From a virus: a stretch of 64,000 bases of DNA. The stretch is from UHGV virus genome UHGV-0109738; one strand, 5' to 3'. Shown piece after piece: positions 33,451 through 51,790 of the stretch (the first letter of the stretch is position 1; each line of letters begins with the position of its first letter). Both the position numbers and the translations under genes were made by a program. The notes under the pieces are model-generated. The model saw only the letters and a program-made list of their open reading frames with translations, did not search any database and was not told the origin of the DNA.

Positions 33451-34935
33451 TTAAAACCCTCGCAGGCGCTTAGGTAACATAAGGCCCATTGCCTGTGGCT
33501 GGCTTAGTTCGGTGATACCCCATACCATTGCGTCCATACGGTCAGGGGATTTTTTGGCGGTAGCTGGCACGTATTCCATCATTTGATTTTCCAGCGTATA
33601 TAGCTCACCAGTGTGTGCCACCCTTCCTTGTGCATACAGTGCTGATATTGGTTCGGCGCGGGCGAATTTACCTTTGCTTGCGTGCACCTTAACAATGCGG
33701 CCTTTGAATCCTGCATTGCGTAGCGTGGCCTCTGCCATGTCACCGCCCTGGTTGGTTTCGATAACTATCGCGTCAGCTTCATGGATGTCATAAGCGTTCA
33801 TTGCTGCTTGCGCCCAGTCGTTAGGCGACATGCGGCCTGAATAGTCACCGTCTACTGAATACTGTGCGTACTTGCCGCCACCATAAGCGGAACACGCCAT
33901 GATCCCCGTTTCGTCTGACTCATCAGATGATGTTGTCGCAGGGTCAATAGCTATCACAGTGCGGATTTTCTCCTGCGTTATCTGCATCCGGTGCGCGGCG
34001 GTAATCATCGCCTCTGTCCACAACGCACCCTCTTCGTCGAATTTACGCGGGCGCTGCATGTACTGGGCCTCAAATGACCGTCTGTGTGCCTTCAGTCCAG
34101 CTTCATGGGCGTCATTGTGCTTTTTAGGCCATAGCCAGCCATCTGGCAGGTTATGAGGAATGGGGATAGCGAACTCGTTTTCAGGATACAAATCCCGGTA
34201 GTCAACGCTGTTGTCGATTTTCACTGGCAGGTTCAAGTGATACCACTTTTCACCGCTTCCACCGCGTAGCAGGTAGCCGGACAAATCATCGTAGTGGATG
34301 CGCTGCATGATGACGATGACAGGCGTTGTTTGCACCGCCAGACGTGAAGCAAGCGTGTCGTTGTAGTTGGTGTTTACCTGCTTTCTCACCACGTCAGAGT
34401 AAGCGTCAGCGGGTTTTAATGGGTCGTCGATGATTAACGCGCCATTAAATCCTGGCTCCATATACCCCGCACGGAACCCTGTAACCTGGCCAAGCGATGA
34501 CGTTGCATACACGCCGCCACCGTATTCAGTCCACCACATTGATTTTGAGTTTGCATCGTTGCGGATCCTCATGGGCCACATTGCCTGATATTCAGGCGTA
34601 CAGATCATGTTTCTTACGGTCGAGGAATTGAGTAACGCCAGGTTGTTGGAATAGGAGACATGAAGGAATCGTGTGCGGGGATTTATTGCGAGTGACCGCG
34701 CCATCATGTTGATAGTTGCGATCATGGTTTTGCCGTACCCTGGAGGGATGTTAATGATGAGTCGGGTTATCTCACCATTGACAACGCGTTGCAGTGCGTC
34801 GCGGATAGCTAAGTGATGGCCTGAGATTAACATCTTCGTTCCGTTCGCTTGCTTATAGAAGTAGCGATTGAAAAACAGGCCATCGTTTTCACATTTGGAC
34901 TGAATAACTCGTTCTTTGATTGTCAGCATAATCAC
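33451..34935 (-). CDS. terminase large subunit
   Basis: 494 aa; Walker A-like PPGYGKT; follows terS. Confidence 0.85.
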   Translation of the reverse strand: MIMLTIKERVIQSKCENDGLFFNRYFYKQANGTKMLISGHHLAIRDALQRVVNGEITRLIINIPPGYGKTMIATINMMARSLAINPRTRFLHVSYSNNLALLNSSTVRNMICTPEYQAMWPMRIRNDANSKSMWWTEYGGGVYATSSLGQVTGFRAGYMEPGFNGALIIDDPLKPADAYSDVVRKQVNTNYNDTLASRLAVQTTPVIVIMQRIHYDDLSGYLLRGGSGEKWYHLNLPVKIDNSVDYRDLYPENEFAIPIPHNLPDGWLWPKKHNDAHEAGLKAHRRSFEAQYMQRPRKFDEEGALWTEAMITAAHRMQITQEKIRTVIAIDPATTSSDESDETGIMACSAYGGGKYAQYSVDGDYSGRMSPNDWAQAAMNAYDIHEADAIVIETNQGGDMAEATLRNAGFKGRIVKVHASKGKFARAEPISALYAQGRVAHTGELYTLENQMMEYVPATAKKSPDRMDAMVWGITELSQPQAMGLMLPKRLRGF

Positions 34936-35417
34936 ACCTCATCTTCTACTTCCTGAACGATGCGGGCGATCTCTTCTTTTGTGACTTCTACCTGTACTGG
35001 TGCTTCTTCCCTGTTGCCTACGATTTCCTGCGTAACGCGTTCGCCATACTTACGCGGTTGCAGTTTTGCCAATAGCCATTTACGGGTTTCAATCATCAAT
35101 TGATGGCGGCGGCATTGGTCTTTATCGGTGTTCTCCGCTGCGTCCGCTATGTCGATAATCTCATCAGCCAATACCTCAAAACCGATCTCTTTCGCGCGTA
35201 TGTACATGTCCGAGAACTCTGGCACGTCTCTGAACCATTTAAGGATTGTTGAACGCGCAGGCATATCAGGCATCTTCGAAATCTTGTTAATACTTTGACC
35301 GTCCGCCACCAGCTCACAGATCTCTAATGCCTTTTCTTCGGTATAACCATGCGGACGGCCCACCTTTTTAGCTGCTGGCTTTTTATCGTCAGCTTTTGCC
35401 TTTTTAGTGCGGGCCAT
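34932..35417 (-). CDS. terminase small subunit
   Basis: 161 aa; basic N-terminus with HTH; 4-nt overlap with terL. Confidence 0.75.
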   Translation of the reverse strand: MARTKKAKADDKKPAAKKVGRPHGYTEEKALEICELVADGQSINKISKMPDMPARSTILKWFRDVPEFSDMYIRAKEIGFEVLADEIIDIADAAENTDKDQCRRHQLMIETRKWLLAKLQPRKYGERVTQEIVGNREEAPVQVEVTKEEIARIVQEVEDEV

Positions 35418-35582
35418 ATTTCACCTCTCAAAACCATTTGCACAGAATATATAAACACGCAATTAATGTTGCGCAGTATGTTACCGTTTCCAGAAAGTCG
35501 AATAGCTCTTTCATTGATACCATCCACTTTATTTGACTTGCTTAATTTAGGAAGCGCATAAAATGCGCGTCCAAGCCATAAC

Positions 35583-35651
35583 CTATTGAGTCAGTGCGGT
35601 CATGGTAAGAACAATCGCAACAATCAGGAAAAAGAAATCAAGCCATTTCAT
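35583..35651 (-). CDS. micro-ORF P7, hydrophobic peptide (22 aa) MKWLDFFFLIVAIVLTMTALTQ
   Basis: AGGGGG SD 6 nt upstream; single predicted TM helix; member of tandem array. Confidence 0.45.
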   Translation of the reverse strand: MKWLDFFFLIVAIVLTMTALTQ

Positions 35652-35736
35652 TTTTAACCCCCTGCGATTCAGTTGACACTTAAAAGCACCGCAACGATGA
35701 CAATCACTATAATCATGCAAAAGAAGTCTGCTTCCC

Positions 35737-35817
35737 TCATCTTTTAAACCCTCGATAAAAATCAACGGCAATAACTGTAATAACAGCCACCAGCAATAGC
35801 ATTTCGTATGCGTTCAT
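35737..35817 (-). CDS. micro-ORF P6, hydrophobic peptide (26 aa) MNAYEMLLLVAVITVIAVDFYRGFKR
   Basis: Start overlaps P5 stop (ATGA); shared N-terminal motif M-x-x-Y/F-D/E. Confidence 0.45.
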   Translation of the reverse strand: MNAYEMLLLVAVITVIAVDFYRGFKR

Positions 35818-35912
35818 TTGATACTACCCATAACAAGGCCGATGATTATGATTATGGCGACAACGCCTAGCATCATTCCGCACATAATCGCCAGTAATTC
35901 GAATATATCCAT
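35814..35912 (-). CDS. micro-ORF P5, hydrophobic peptide (32 aa) MDIFELLAIMCGMMLGVVAIIIIIGLVMGSIK
   Basis: AGGTGA SD; stop overlaps P6 start. Confidence 0.45.
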   Translation of the reverse strand: MDIFELLAIMCGMMLGVVAIIIIIGLVMGSIK

Positions 35913-35958
35913 GCCGTCACCTATACAACATTCTTCCACCAGAAATAGATAATGACGG

Positions 35959-35994
35959 CTACACCGACCACCAGATGAGATCGTAAATATTCAT
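35959..35994 (-). pseudogene. micro-ORF P4, truncated (MNIYDLIWWSV), hydrophobic continuation in -1 frame
   Basis: GAAGGTG SD; -1 frame continues VAVIIYFWWKNVV to stop at 35921. Confidence 0.3.
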
Positions 35995-36005
35995 GGTGAA
36001 CACCT

Positions 36006-36080
36006 TCAGCTTTCAATGAATATCATGATCGCCAGCCATACAGCGACGCATAAAGAAAGGATAACGAGTGGGTCAATCAT
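36006..36080 (-). CDS. micro-ORF P3, hydrophobic peptide (24 aa) MIDPLVILSLCVAVWLAIMIFIES
   Basis: GGAGGGG SD; start overlaps P2 stop (ATGATTGA). Confidence 0.45.
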   Translation of the reverse strand: MIDPLVILSLCVAVWLAIMIFIES

Positions 36081-36189
36081 CTTGCCCCTCCACCCAGCGC
36101 TTGATCTTTGCGTTTATTAGTGCAACTGCAATAAAACCCACCAGATATACAGAAATGCCGATCAATCCGGCAATGATATAATCATCCAT
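36073..36189 (-). CDS. micro-ORF P2, hydrophobic peptide (38 aa) MDDYIIAGLIGISVYLVGFIAVALINAKIKRWVEGQDD
   Basis: Translationally coupled to P1 and P3. Confidence 0.4.
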   Translation of the reverse strand: MDDYIIAGLIGISVYLVGFIAVALINAKIKRWVEGQDD

Positions 36190-36193
36190 AACA

Positions 36194-36262
36194 TTATTCA
36201 CCAACCAGTAATATTACAGCGGCAGCCATTCCGATAAACAAACCCAACAGAAAAGTAACCAT
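36194..36262 (-). CDS. micro-ORF P1, hydrophobic peptide (22 aa) MVTFLLGLFIGMAAAVILLVGE
   Basis: GGGGGTG SD; ATG 3 nt after stop of HExxH gene. Confidence 0.4.
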   Translation of the reverse strand: MVTFLLGLFIGMAAAVILLVGE

Positions 36263-36264
36263 AA

Positions 36265-36849
36265 TCACCCCCGTTTAAAGCTCATTACACGCGGTACAAG
36301 CGCTTCTTTTGCTTTAGGCTTACGTTTGCCTTTCTTCGCTGGTTTTTTCTCTTCTTTCGGCTCCTCTGCCTGTTCAACTGCCTGTTCTGCTGCATCAGTC
36401 GCCTTTTCCGCCTGGTCTAATGCCTGCTCTACGACTTCAGCCGCCTGCATTGCTGCAACCTGTGCTTCGTTTGATTCTGCCAGGATTGGGAAGAATGCGT
36501 CAAAGATGCGGCCTACCATGTAAGCATATGTCTCGTTTGCTGGGTGAGTTGGATCAGTGGTCGCCACGACGCCTACATCACTTAAAACGTGGAATGTAGT
36601 GTGTGCGCATTCATGTACCAGCGTTCCTAACTCATTATCGAATACTGCGATCACGTAGAAGTTACCGCCTTTCTCACCCGTGCAGGTTAATGTCAGGCCG
36701 CCTGCCAGTTCGAAATCAGGTTCGATCGGAATCCCTGCCTTCTCGCAAAATTCATAAAACATGTCGCGGGTCGGGCAGAAGAAAACAGTTGTATGCTCAA
36801 AGAGCGGAACTTTGAATTGAGGCAACTTGATGCCTTTAGCCTTAGCCAT
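36265..36849 (-). CDS. putative zinc metallopeptidase-like protein (HExxH motif) with lysine-rich C-terminal tail
   Basis: 194 aa; motif LVHECAHTTFH; C-terminus EEKKPAKKGKRKPKAK. Confidence 0.5.
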   Translation of the reverse strand: MAKAKGIKLPQFKVPLFEHTTVFFCPTRDMFYEFCEKAGIPIEPDFELAGGLTLTCTGEKGGNFYVIAVFDNELGTLVHECAHTTFHVLSDVGVVATTDPTHPANETYAYMVGRIFDAFFPILAESNEAQVAAMQAAEVVEQALDQAEKATDAAEQAVEQAEEPKEEKKPAKKGKRKPKAKEALVPRVMSFKRG

Positions 36850-37128
36850 CAGAATATTCCTCTATCCTGAAAAATATAACCCCCGCAAAACTGGACACCG
36901 CAGGGAGTGAAAACAGCTATAAAACACTAAAAACGGCGCTGCATGAGTACCGTTTTCAGAATTTTATAAAACTGGATAATGGCGCTTTCTTCTACCCAGG
37001 TAGCGCCCTACCTGTTAATGAGGTTGTTTACCAGGTATTACGTGTTTTTGACTATTCCGCCGTCGCTCGCGGGAAGGATTGGCCCGGTTATGGCTGGCTG
37101 GCAGAAACGGCGACACGTCCACGCGCTG

Positions 37129-37599
37129 TTATTCTTTGCGTAAGCACTGCGTTTTGATGTAGTCCTGTAACCCAGTGATCTGAGCGTCTTTCGTTTTTAG
37201 TTGTTCTCTGAGGGATAGATAAGCTGATTCAGCGTCGGGAGTGAGTCTACAGGTGGCTCCATCAATGGCGCTGGCGGATCCGGTGGGGTCAGACACTCGC
37301 ACGGGCGTTGCGTTGACGCGCAGCCGGATAGTGCCGTTATCAATACCAGTGCGCAGATCGGCAATGTCAGATCTGATAGCTTTAATTTCATCGTGATACC
37401 TCTTATCAAGTTTTGACAGTTCGGCGTTTCGCTCCTTCATCTGCTGAATAGTATTACTTGCTGTTTTTAGTGCGCCCTGCGTAGTAGTTAGCTCGCTTTG
37501 CATTGTGTTTATCACTGACTGGCAATGACTGAGCGCGGCAACAAGGCCAACAACAATACAAACAACAACGGCGATGATTAACGTCTTCACCTTGTCCAT
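37129..37599 (-). CDS. Rz i-spanin
   Basis: 156 aa; N-terminal TM then coiled-coil; follows endolysin; contains embedded Rz1 frame. Confidence 0.8.
37197..37391 (-). CDS. Rz1 o-spanin lipoprotein (embedded in Rz)
   Basis: [24 protein letters not shown] lipobox; proline-rich; alternative frame within Rz. Confidence 0.75.
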   Translation of the reverse strand: MKLKLSDLTLPICALVLITALSGCASTQRPCECLTPPDPPAPLMEPPVDSLPTLNQLIYPSENN

Positions 37600-38078
37600 G
37601 TTTCACCCCATTCGCAAACGGCATATTCAACCTCGCGGCGGTTAACCAGGCCTTGCCACTTCTTACCGCCAGCGTATACCCAGCGTTTAAGCTGTGCGCA
37701 CGCTTCTGATTTCTTGCCGTCATTGAGTAGCTTCAATAAGGTTGATGTTTTGAAATTGGTAGCGCCTACGTTATAGGCGAATGAATAAAGTGCTGCGCGG
37801 GTAAAATCTGATATTTCGACTTTAATATAGGGATCGATCGCTTTTGCGGTCTTGTGTAGATCTTTATTTAACAAAGCATCGCATTCTGATTGCGTGTAAG
37901 TCTTGCCAAGCATGATGTCTTTTCCCGTATGACCGTGGCAAACAGTCCATACACCAACAACATCACGATAAGGATTGTAATCAACTCCCTCTAATGGCTT
38001 AATCATCACCGCCGCAATAGCGATCGCCCCACCAGCCGCCGCCGCAACAATCTTGTTTTTCAGCGATTGGCTAATCAT
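37587..38078 (-). CDS. SAR endolysin (phage lysozyme)
   Basis: N-terminal signal-anchor [26 protein letters not shown] followed by lysozyme-like domain; start immediately after holin stop. Confidence 0.8.
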
Positions 38079-38079
38079 G

Positions 38080-38280
38080 TTACTTATTCCCCATTCGCGC
38101 GTCGTGTTCCTCTTGCGCTCGCTTGTTCTCCTGTGATTTGAAGTAATAGTTAACGGCAAATGTGCCTACGGTTGATAAGATACCCACAAAGACGGCAATA
38201 TCATTGATGGTTATCGCGCCGAAAAAAGCAGTTACGGCCCCAGTCACATACGCGCACGCCTCCCGTATTCTGTCGAACAT
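38080..38280 (-). CDS. holin (phage 21 S-type pinholin-like)
   Basis: 66 aa, two TM segments, charged C-terminus [26 protein letters not shown]. Confidence 0.75.
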
Positions 38281-51286: not shown

Positions 51287-51549
51287 ACGCCGAACATCCC
51301 ATTCAGTCCGGCGAACAATTTCCGCCAGTGGTTTTCAACATAAGCCCGGAACGGCTTAACGCGAACATTGCGGGCCTTCAGTTCAATCTTGTCGAAGAAA
51401 CGCGGCTCTATAATTGTTCCGTCCAGATATTTAACCAGGATCGGGCGCTCAAGATCGTTATATGTCTTGTTCAGCACAACCAGACCAGGGTCACTACGAT
51501 ATTCAGACAAAACAACAAGATCGCCCTCTTTTACATTCCAAGTAACCAT
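51277..51549 (-). CDS. hypothetical protein (90 aa)
   Basis: ORF track; ATG start adjacent to upstream micro-ORF stop. Confidence 0.4.
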   Translation of the reverse strand: MVTWNVKEGDLVVLSEYRSDPGLVVLNKTYNDLERPILVKYLDGTIIEPRFFDKIELKARNVRVKPFRAYVENHWRKLFAGLNGMFGVWP

Positions 51550-51668
51550 CACATCACCACCTTACCAATAAAAGCCAATACCGCAGCAAGTGCTCCGCAA
51601 AATACAATCGTAAACAGGAAACAAATAACGCAAAACGCGACCGTCACAATATCCTTACCGACTTTCAT
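51549..51668 (-). CDS. micro-ORF, hydrophobic peptide (39 aa) MKVGKDIVTVAFCVICFLFTIVFCGALAAVLAFIGKVVM
   Basis: Manual translation; ends with ATG-TGA overlapping next start. Confidence 0.35.
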   Translation of the reverse strand: MKVGKDIVTVAFCVICFLFTIVFCGALAAVLAFIGKVVM

Positions 51669-51676
51669 GATTGGCC

Positions 51677-51790
51677 TCACATGTTAGTGATGAGTTTAAT
51701 GATCGATACCGTGATATAAAGCGATACGCTGAGATACAGCACGGCGATAGATAAAGCCGCAAGCAATGCGGCAATTTTTGCAAGGTTCAT
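51677..51790 (-). CDS. micro-ORF, hydrophobic peptide (37 aa) MNLAKIAALLAALSIAVLYLSVSLYITVSIIKLITNM
   Basis: Manual translation; GGAGGG SD; ATGA overlap with upstream gene. Confidence 0.35.
   Translation of the reverse strand: MNLAKIAALLAALSIAVLYLSVSLYITVSIIKLITNM

Follow-up and report, generated by a model that had tools for sequence, protein, structure and literature searches.

A selected array of nine micro-genes for predicted single-helix membrane peptides between the lysis and packaging genes of an Escherichia coli prophage

The DNA analyzed here (the window) is a 64,000-nucleotide stretch of the virus genome UHGV-0109738, an E. coli prophage. Between its lysis genes and its DNA-packaging genes, the 848-nt gap separating p194 from terS contains nine minus-strand micro-ORFs of 22 to 38 codons, eight intact and one (P4) broken, whose products are predicted single-helix membrane peptides (Table 1). 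Each of the nine begins with ATG and is preceded by a Shine-Dalgarno (SD) motif, and neighbors overlap or lie at most 17 nt apart, with one 68-nt spacer as the sole exception. P2 and P3 overlap by ATGATTGA, and the P5/P6 and P6/P6b pairs each overlap by ATGA. The array abuts both flanking genes with 2 to 10 nt: the p194 stop codon ends 2 nt ahead of the P1 start codon, and the P8 stop codon overlaps the SD of terS (TGAGAGGTGAAATATG). Rather than intergenic DNA, the gap is a stretch of operon made up of nine very small genes.

Table 1. Features of the p194-terS region, with coordinates of the micro-ORFs checked by translation
Feature	Family	Position	Strand	Description	Loci with family (of 49)	pN/pS
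p194 (5' flanking gene)		36265..36849	-	zincin-like N-terminal domain (HExxH...E), long helix, basic tail		
P1	F03	36194..36262	-	22 aa, MVTFLLGLFIGMAAAVILLVGE; ATG; SD GGGGGTGA	23	0.34
P2	F05	36073..36189	-	38 aa, MDDYIIAGLIGISVYLVGFIAVALINAKIKRWVEGQDD, begins MDDY	45	0.26
P3	F08	36006..36080	-	24 aa, MIDPLVILSLCVAVWLAIMIFIES, begins MIDPL	47	0.33
P4	F11	35921..35994	-	pseudogene in the window	29 (intact)	0.31
P5	F13	35814..35912	-	32 aa, MDIFELLAIMCGMMLGVVAIIIIIGLVMGSIK, begins MDIFELL	22	0.13
P6	F14	35737..35817	-	26 aa, MNAYEMLLLVAVITVIAVDFYRGFKR, begins MNAYEML	47	0.28
P6b	F15	35669..35740	-	23 aa, MREADFFCMIIVIVIVAVLLSVN	15	0.17
P7	F16	35583..35651	-	22 aa, MKWLDFFFLIVAIVLTMTALTQ, begins MKWLDFF	46	0.13
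non-coding spacer		35515..35582	-	68 nt; small hairpin GCGCATTTTATGCGC at 35568-35554		
P8	F20	35428..35514	-	28 aa, MKELFDFLETVTYCATLIACLYILCKWF	49	0.26
terS (3' flanking gene)		34932..35417	-	small terminase subunit, Sf6 type; Pfam PF20901, E = 1.5e-37		

The original prediction had described seven of these micro-ORFs, P1 to P7, and translation places every one of them on the minus strand where it was said to lie, with the P2/P3 and P5/P6 overlaps as claimed. The count of seven was nevertheless too low, since P6b lies within the span then described, and the boundary set at position 35583 was too narrow, with P8 just outside it. A frameshift proposed for P4 was also borne out. A 1-nt deletion truncates P4 to MNIYDLIWWSV followed by a stop, leaving the remainder of the peptide in another frame, whereas intact relatives encode a 24-aa peptide, MNIYDLIWWS(L/V)VAVIIYFWWKNVV (alignment with L001, L004, and L005). 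The deletion is found only in the window and in an identical contig, L006. At the position of the 68-nt spacer, other phages carry up to five further cassettes (F17 to F21).

Such an array is not expected by chance. A filter requiring an ATG, an SD, and a hydrophobic core retains seven ORFs in the gap; in 1000 dinucleotide shuffles, it retains 0.44 on average and never more than 4. P1 was separated from its own SD by the boundary at which the gap was extracted, and it passes in the whole-window scan. No ORF on the antisense strand of the gap passes, and the array is the only locus in the 64-kb window with more than two passing ORFs.

Selection on the micro-ORFs was assessed in 49 related loci from mEp021-type (mEpimmI) coliphages and prophages, comprising 450 ORF copies. 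Starts are ATG in 446 of the 450 copies, and 445 have an SD motif 3 nt or longer; spacing has a median of 8 nt, 33% of the copies overlap a neighbor, coding density is 91%, and peptide lengths are fixed or nearly so within families. Segregating sites at codon positions 1, 2, and 3 number 125, 87, and 229 (chi-square p = 1e-16). Pooled over families, pN/pS is 0.26 when computed in the proposed frame, whereas the two remaining sense frames yield 1.02 and 1.27; 16 individual families have values of 0.13 to 0.40, and terS, for comparison, 0.11. As expected, the antisense frame with common wobble positions also has a low value (0.36), so the selection test alone leaves the strand unfixed; strand is assigned from the starts, SDs, and open frames. 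Conservation of reading frames in relatives had been named in advance as what genuine genes should display, and frames, starts, and SDs are indeed kept in the 49 loci. The micro-ORF frames are thus conserved and under purifying selection, upholding the original view of them as real coding sequences for hydrophobic single-helix peptides.

Across the 49 loci, each phage carries 3 to 13 cassettes drawn from about 21 peptide families. These are arranged in 37 distinct architectures with not one violation of a single common order. The junction sequence taGGTGA recurs between cassettes, and hybrid cassettes attest to recombination between family members. Members also have an N-terminal motif in common beyond what composition explains, which, together with the hybrids, substantiates the paralogy first proposed from the window peptides. 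The cassettes therefore come from about 21 partly paralogous families and, while their order is fixed, they are gained, lost, and recombined at SD/stop/ATG junctions. The length of the p194-terS gap ranges from 4 to 1157 nt with variable content. The lower end is a more distant relative (L134) in which terS starts 4 nt after p194 and the array is absent, indicating that the array is dispensable. The broken P4 of the window likewise speaks for dispensability. The array of phage mEp021, which grows on K-12, is limited to five cassettes.

Array-matched prophages were found in 35 of 5,426 complete E. coli genomes, and tblastn matches to the 47-aa F21 and the 38-aa P2 were confined to the mEpimmI group. 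Cassette F02 has a wider distribution. Its copies in locus L099 and in phage rV5 are 95.6% identical at the DNA level, SD included, although their flanks are only 29 to 30% identical, and tblastn recovered it from some 85 other phage records, which are rV5-like where their type is listed. In the 5-kb stretch of rV5 that was examined, F02 lies among hypothetical small genes and a single gene for a virion structural protein, and nothing is annotated as a lysis gene. Transfer between the temperate mEpimmI group and virulent rV5-like phages has occurred for at least one cassette, its own ribosome-binding site included.

Each window peptide contains one hydrophobic helix of approximately 13 to 27 residues, in most cases with a short acidic stretch at the N terminus and a C terminus that is neutral or basic. 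T occupies 54% of second codon positions. Among 21 family representatives, hydrophobic cores span 15 to 30 residues, 17 have a net negative N flank and none a positive one, and 20 have a C flank whose net charge is zero or positive. From this charge arrangement around a hydrophobic core, an N-out/C-in inner-membrane helix is predicted. On an insertion-energy scale applied with no position weighting, the summed insertion free energy over 17 residues is negative in six of the nine window peptides, and P4, P6, and P8, which have short cores (approximately 13 to 15 residues), give marginal values. P3 was considered as a possible lipoprotein, as its relatives read LSAC, which resembles a lipobox. 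The idea was rejected on two grounds: the segment ahead of this motif is too short and too acidic, and the window copy reads LSLC.

In keeping with the original view that this is no described phage module, PHROGs returned no match for the nine window peptides, Pfam and NCBIfam gave no significant match among 23 representative peptides (toxin families included), and PADLOC gave none for the peptides. A single peptide of the 23 had a sub-threshold match to the Pfam family Holin_SPP1 (E = 0.0087). An Rfam scan of positions 34800 to 37200 produced only a chance CRISPR-repeat match inside terS, and no described module of such micro-genes was found in the literature searched. The array peptides fall below the length cutoffs of gene callers, and most genome annotations, like the protein-family databases, omit the micro-genes. 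RefSeq leaves the 0.75- to 0.8-kb array stretch empty in both prophage genomes examined, peptides shorter than 30 aa are absent from a collection of 15 billion proteins, and the exact P2 sequence appears in a public protein collection labeled only "hypothetical protein." In a study whose virion proteomics was aimed at structural proteins, mEp021-type phages are reported to be as common in human stool isolates as lambdoid phages from the same collection (PMC11893012). The hemolysis-inducing Ipe protein of mEp021 was also considered as a possible array peptide and rejected, Ipe being the 72- to 83-aa product of another ORF.

Promoter-like sites in the region show no excess over the shuffle expectation. 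Terminator-like sites number 8 against 4.1 ± 1.8 expected (about 2-fold), three of the low-stringency matches lying inside array ORFs. Two terminator-like hairpins lie 5' of p194, one of which is annotated as a terminator in mEp021. The array also contains no above-chance promoter-like site of the kind that a moron, with its own promoter and terminator, would be expected to have. The array lies between the lysis cassette and terS/terL. With the timing read from gene order only, it would be transcribed together with p194, terS, and the structural genes in late lytic transcription, which would read through the two hairpins upstream of p194, and translation would proceed by SD-driven initiation and coupling between neighbors.

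Several alternative functions were weighed against these data. The original prediction had offered the peptides as possible precursors for the adjacent HExxH protein, and a RiPP-like or protease-substrate module in which p194 processes them would fit with the invariance of its HExxH...E signature (H79, E80, H83, and E106 in 45 distant homologs), with its constant position beside the array in the mEpimmI group, and with a database entry that names one homolog PolyVal metallopeptidase. Yet p194 belongs to no Pfam family, its AF2 model (pLDDT 78) has no fold match in the PDB, solved peptidases included, and phrog_1365, which it does match, carries no functional label. None of 33 loci in P22-like phages that encode p194 homologs (Orf129) at 41 to 45% identity has downstream micro-ORFs. 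The p194 of L134 (53% identity, same tail) is likewise followed directly by terS, and the rV5-like phages that carry F02 do not appear among the p194 tblastn matches. The peptides also lack a leader/core organization, nearly the whole of each being hydrophobic helix. We regard processing by p194 as extremely improbable. It is unlikely, too, that the peptides regulate lysis timing by pairing with holin transmembrane helices in an antiholin-like or pro-holin manner, with the cassette mix setting the time of permeabilization. A holin-endolysin-spanin cassette does precede the array in the same orientation, the peptides are small and single-helix, and one of them has the Holin_SPP1 match. However, no peptide reaches a Pfam holin-family threshold, Rz, the two terminator-like hairpins, and p194 stand between the holin and the array, and no annotated lysis gene accompanies F02 in the rV5 stretch. 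L134 has a holin of the same family and no array; as the two holins compared belong to one family, the comparison of holin type could not separate the hypotheses.

In size and hydrophobicity the peptides also resemble the Ibs, Ldr, TisB, and Hok toxins, some of whose loci are likewise tandem, which raises the possibility of depolarizing membrane poisons that are silenced by antisense RNA and serve in addiction or abortive infection. Against this, the peptides are translationally coupled in a polycistronic unit without individual promoters, the Rfam scan yielded no RNA family, no sign of an antisense ORF or RNA was seen, toxin families in Pfam and NCBIfam gave no match, and the SDs are strong, whereas type I toxins typically have occluded ribosome-binding sites. 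Such a role is highly improbable. We also judge it very unlikely that the peptides have no function at all and that the array works at the nucleic acid level (as a packaging site or a ribosome relay to terS) or consists of neutral by-products of T-rich sequence. The array adjoins terS, its last ORF overlaps the terS SD, and hydrophobic ORFs arise readily from T-rich sequence, a point discussed in PMC11188072. Neither neutrality nor a purely nucleic acid role would account for the codon-position substitution pattern, the frame-specific pN/pS of 0.26, the lengths, ATG starts, and SDs conserved in 450 copies, or the one cassette kept intact in unrelated rV5-like phages. Further, cassette number varies from 0 to 13, and therefore no fixed DNA site in the array can be essential. 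The terminase is of the Sf6 type, and Sf6-type headful packaging systems recognize a site inside or near terS itself. The counter-case allowed for at the outset, that the region is purely cos or pac DNA, is likewise at odds with a gap so variable in length and content.

The most likely interpretation is that the peptides are late-expressed accessory membrane microproteins. They would insert in the inner membrane with the N terminus periplasmic and the C terminus cytoplasmic, as does the Pf3 coat protein, and would act singly, in a dispensable accessory capacity, through packing of their helices against the transmembrane segments of larger membrane proteins, a step that we model on characterized small membrane proteins. 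The partners might belong to the host, the phage, or a competitor, and the result may be a late conditioning of the membrane, for example, the exclusion of other phages, the blunting of membrane-acting abortive-infection effectors, or the tuning of lysis. No part in virion building or DNA packaging is envisaged for the peptides. We give the model as a whole, a selected micro-gene operon expressed late and supplying inner-membrane accessory peptides, an even chance of being right.

A more specific version of these accessory membrane microproteins is tentative. The array might be a combinatorial toolkit of transmembrane-helix binders, in which each cassette of about 25 residues has a different membrane-protein target. 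Conceivable targets, again tentatively, are the injection channels that competitor phages use or the membrane-acting effectors of host abortive-infection systems that respond to the appearance of late proteins such as terminase and portal. Phages could possibly shuffle such a toolkit through recombination where cassettes share SD/stop junctions, and could do so between temperate and virulent phages as well. If true, this would amount to a new class of phage counter-defense or exclusion module made from the smallest possible genes. The mEp021 array is a tractable experimental system for the roles of single-helix peptides in phage.

The working model for the array peptides is the binding of small membrane proteins to a larger membrane protein. 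AcrZ, MgtS, MgrB, KdpF, CydX, and PmrR all regulate larger membrane proteins (review PMC12648545). Like the predicted array peptides, AcrZ-type proteins have 20 to 50 residues and one transmembrane helix and are usually overlooked by annotation. The two groups have no sequence similarity, and AcrZ-type proteins are encoded by single chromosomal genes with their own regulation, whereas the array consists of 3 to 13 unrelated or paralogous cassettes in one coupled phage operon. For topology, the closest likeness is to the Pf3 coat protein, a 44-residue virion structural protein of a filamentous phage that is encoded by a single gene. As is predicted for the array peptides, its span is short and single, with an acidic N-tail, a basic C-tail, an N-out/C-in orientation, and no signal peptide. 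However, the array peptides are shorter, their C termini are in many cases uncharged, and a membrane coat is not a feature of tailed phages. Type I toxins (Ibs, Ldr, TisB, Hok, and ShoB) each have their own promoter, an antisense RNA, and repressed translation. They share with the array peptides a very small size and a hydrophobic helical character, and their genes are sometimes tandemly duplicated, but the array is operonic and has strong SDs, no antisense signal, and no family match.

Holins, antiholins, and single-gene lysis peptides, the last a diverse group (PMC7693330), resemble the predicted array peptides in being small phage membrane peptides near lysis functions. The 37-aa LysM of the single-stranded RNA phage M illustrates that a one-helix peptide of fewer than 40 aa is able to inhibit a specific membrane enzyme. 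The array differs in that a complete holin-endolysin-spanin set is already present in the phage and in that it is itself variable and dispensable. Two further lines of work come close in other respects. Hydrophobic intergenic microprotein families of Enterobacteriaceae are described as short, under purifying selection, and unannotated (PMC11188072). In the laboratory, hydrophobic random peptides confer phage resistance and 50-codon hydrophobic ORFs readily gain phage-related functions, the peptides that could be localized being cytosolic and acting through the Rcs pathway (PMC12557735). In the passages searched, neither paper reports a phage operon with multiple cassettes in a set order. The array has an unusual evolutionary mode, in which order is fixed, presence and absence are free, and horizontal transfer is cassette-sized, and it clearly exemplifies, in nature, how selection can maintain many microprotein genes within a single operon.

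The 848-nt gap between p194, the gene for an HExxH protein, and terS, the small terminase gene, holds nine minus-strand ORFs of 22 to 38 codons, each with an ATG start and a Shine-Dalgarno (SD) motif. All seven micro-ORFs of the original prediction (P1 to P7) were found on checking, with their overlaps as described, and yet its count and outer boundary were too small: P6b lies within the range that it covered and was overlooked there, and P8 lies just beyond it. Neighboring ORFs range from overlapping by 8 nt to lying 17 nt apart, except at one 68-nt spacer. This spacer occupies the position where other phages hold up to five extra cassettes (peptide families F17 to F21) and may be the scar of a deletion or a small element with a regulatory role. 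The frameshift reported in P4 proved to be a 1-nt deletion confined to the window and a metagenomic contig identical to it; in relatives the peptide is intact, at 24 aa. Under a filter combining ATG, SD, and a hydrophobic core, seven ORFs in the gap passed, versus a mean of 0.44 and a maximum of 4 in 1000 dinucleotide-preserving shuffles; none passed on the opposite strand of the gap, and no locus in the rest of the 64-kb window had more than two. Elsewhere in the prophage, a pair of adjacent hydrophobic small ORFs (window 51549-51790, minus strand) may represent a second, smaller set of membrane micro-genes.

The window prophage is of the mEp021 type, which belongs to the "mEpimmI" group of non-lambdoid, Nus-dependent temperate coliphages (PMC11893012). 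Its array region is 86 to 93% identical to those of mEp044, MagusPhagus, mEp010, mEp021, and others and was matched in prophages of 35 of 5,426 complete E. coli genomes. The minus-strand gene order is holin, endolysin, Rz-type spanin, a 279-nt noncoding stretch, p194, the array, terS, and terL. In relatives, HNH endonuclease genes that look like mobile nuclease genes inside the late region occur between lysozyme and Rz or between terS and terL (L050 2752-3273; the P0117-carrying contig). The gene at the portal position of another relative (NZ_CP095538.1, 1-1171) bears the RefSeq name "anti-CBASS protein Acb1 family protein," which may be a misleading automatic name; the same position is labeled "DUF1073 domain-containing protein" in another genome and matches PF06381 (Phage_portal_3) in related contigs.

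Features of the array and its surroundings (window coordinates unless an accession is given)
Feature	Coordinates	Strand	Remarks
terL, large terminase	33451-34935	minus	
terS, Sf6-type small terminase	34932-35417	minus	
P8, MKELFDFLETVTYCATLIACLYILCKWF	35514-35428	minus	stop codon overlaps terS ribosome-binding site
Spacer, 68 nt	35515-35582	minus	only noncoding stretch of the array; hairpin GCGCATTTTATGCGC at 35568-35554
P6b, MREADFFCMIIVIVIVAVLLSVN	35740-35669	minus	
p194, 194-aa HExxH protein	36265-36849	minus	
Two tandem intrinsic-terminator-like hairpins, GAAAACGGTACTCATGCAGCGCCGTTTTT and CCCTGCGGTGTCCAGTTTTGCGGGGGTTATATTTTT	~36870-36960	minus	just upstream of p194
Rz-type spanin	37129-37599	minus	
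Endolysin	37587-38159	minus	
39-aa ORF, MKVGKDIVTVAFCVICFLFTIVFCGALAAVLAFIGKVVM	51668-51549	minus	ATG and SD, hydrophobic
37-aa ORF, MNLAKIAALLAALSIAVLYLSVSLYITVSIIKLITNM	51790-51677	minus	ATG and SD, hydrophobic
rV5 copy of family F02, 29-aa ORF, MIASILTFMGGVAFGFIVCLFIVIMSMRG	NC_011041 2504-2593		unannotated, between gp132 and gp133

For comparison, 46 viral contigs were fetched via terS and combined with three phage records; 48 of these and the window were analyzed, giving 49 loci. The p194-to-terS distance varied from 321 to 1157 nt and was filled with similar ORFs in every case. The 450 ORF copies clustered into about 21 peptide families, nearly all with an ATG start (446 copies) and an SD (445 copies); the median intercistronic distance was 8 nt, one-third of the copies overlapped a neighbor (mostly by ATGA), and 91% of the gap was coding across loci. 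Variable sites within families were distributed over codon positions 1, 2, and 3 as 125:87:229 (p = 1e-16). Loss of reading-frame conservation in relatives had been named as grounds for refuting the original prediction; the frames are conserved across the 49 loci, with a pooled pN/pS of 0.26 (0.13 to 0.40 in each of 16 families), versus 1.02 and 1.27 in the remaining two sense frames and 0.11 for terS at the same loci. The antisense frames gave 0.82, 0.36, and 1.63, the value of 0.36 belonging to the wobble-sharing frame, as expected. From the conserved starts, SDs, and substitution patterns, we take the micro-ORFs to be real protein-coding genes and the purifying selection on them to be moderate. 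At least one of the features tested contradicts a reading of the array as purely DNA- or RNA-level elements. No RNA families were found, and promoter-like matches were not enriched over shuffles.

Cassette content varies widely, with 37 combinations among the 49 loci and 3 to 13 cassettes per phage, and a single linear family order fits all loci with zero violations. Five families occur in nearly every locus (F20 in all 49, F08 and F14 in 47 each, F16 in 46, and F05 in 45), and the others vary in presence. The sequence immediately 5' of a start codon travels with the preceding cassette regardless of the next one (tgttgtaTAGGTGAnnnnATG after F11 and gactcaaTAGGTGA after F16, for example), which places breakpoints within the first codons or where SD, stop, and ATG meet. 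F04 is a hybrid joining the first four codons of F05 to the F03 core, F06 begins with a combination of the F14 and F11 starts, and F15 and F19 have 15 of their first 18 nt in common. Such hybrids lend support to the proposed paralogous, duplicating family and point to probable recombination among its members in addition to duplication.

Each family encodes one hydrophobic core (15 to 30 residues in 21 family representatives), and T occupies the second position of 54% of codons. The flank preceding the core carries a net negative charge in 17 of 21 families and a net positive one in none; the flank following it is neutral or positive overall in 20 of 21. Given this charge pattern and the positive-inside rule, the N terminus is predicted to be periplasmic and the C terminus cytoplasmic. 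Y or F stands at position 4 in 11 families, as does D or E at position 5, and the common N-terminal pattern exceeds what composition gives (score of -1.6, with shuffled peptides at -6.2 ± 1.07). When biological hydrophobicity values were simply summed, membrane insertion was clearly predicted for six of the nine window peptides; P4, P6, and P8 were marginal because their cores are short.

Both hairpins upstream of p194 (-9.9 and -11.8 kcal/mol) lead into a U-run, and one bears a terminator annotation in mEp021. The second occurs in at least 34 of 48 relatives under a strict pattern; the first has a variant form in the relatives inspected, the strict pattern matching only 8 of 48. The few terminator-like matches in the array are of low stringency and lie inside ORFs. 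The tandem hairpins suggest that read-through transcription is needed for the packaging and structural genes. Judged by gene order only, p194, the array, and these genes would be read by late, terminator-resistant transcription from upstream.

The adjacency of p194 had raised the possibility that the peptides are precursors processed by it. The p194 protein consists of a zincin-like domain, a 58-residue helix, and a tail rich in lysine and arginine. Proteins of about 120 aa form a modest family that includes its N-terminal domain and has invariant G51, H79, E80, H83, and E106, a zincin-like signature (HExxH...E); Pfam and solved folds yielded neither a family nor a fold match. Its P22-like homologues (Orf129 of ST64T and gp70 of epsilon34) are tail-less and likewise sit between lysis genes and terS; a 134-aa gene separates them from terS, and the interval contains no micro-ORFs. 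(A second, more distant p194 copy adjoins the sieA promoter in P22 [NC_002371 13861-14193]; it is hkcC in HK620.) No qualifying micro-ORF run was present downstream of p194 homologues of 41 to 45% identity in 33 viral contigs, and in a contig whose p194 has 53% identity and a basic tail, terS begins 4 nt downstream. These array-less loci indicate that the array was inserted where p194 meets terS in one clade, that the phage type can do without it, and that it has no link to the HExxH protein.

Family F02 (29 aa), a cassette that has passed between phage types, bears on the same question, as its DNA, SD included, is 95.6% identical between an mEpimmI-type contig and the virulent phage rV5, whereas the 80-nt flanks on each side are unrelated. 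By tblastn, the ORF is present in some 85 additional phage records, rV5-like where listed. No rV5-like phage was among the tblastn hits for p194. The precursor idea is thus disfavored, because p194 homologues occur without the array and F02 occurs without a p194 match; at least one of the features tested contradicts it, as also holds for the view of the peptides as type I-like toxins. Regulation of the holin is ranked below a general membrane-conditioning or exclusion role, since in a virulent phage F02 lies away from any annotated lysis gene in the 5-kb stretch examined, and the array is missing from a relative whose holin is of the same family. The best-supported reading is a late-operon array of individually exchangeable microproteins, predicted to be single-pass inner-membrane proteins. 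We hypothesize that they would bind other membrane proteins and in this way play accessory roles; the source of these partners may be the host, competing phages, or the phage's own lysis machinery.

The suggestion that the module had not been described before agrees with the family databases and literature searched. PHROG gave no family match for the nine window peptides, and Pfam, NCBIfam, and PADLOC gave no meaningful match for 23 family representatives. In a 15-billion-protein collection, peptides shorter than 30 aa are absent, and those of 32, 38, and 47 aa are listed solely as "hypothetical" or without a name. In both RefSeq genomes examined, PGAP annotates nothing in the gap, and PHANOTATE-based records annotate some array ORFs as hypothetical proteins. 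The mEpimmI genome paper does not discuss the array peptides (PMC11893012); its hemolysis-inducing protein, Ipe, was ruled out as one of them, being a different product of 72 to 83 aa. A general survey found Enterobacteriaceae hydrophobic microproteins under selection (PMC11188072), and hydrophobic random peptides can confer phage resistance (PMC12557735); the passages of these two papers that were searched contain no comparable ordered array. The array is real, larger than first reported, and not described as a module before; it stands out for the number of its cassettes, for an order that stays fixed although each cassette may be present or absent, and for horizontal transfer of single cassettes. 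It belongs among the small membrane proteins of phages and bacteria, and the N-out/C-in signal arrangement predicted for its peptides is that of the Pf3 coat protein.
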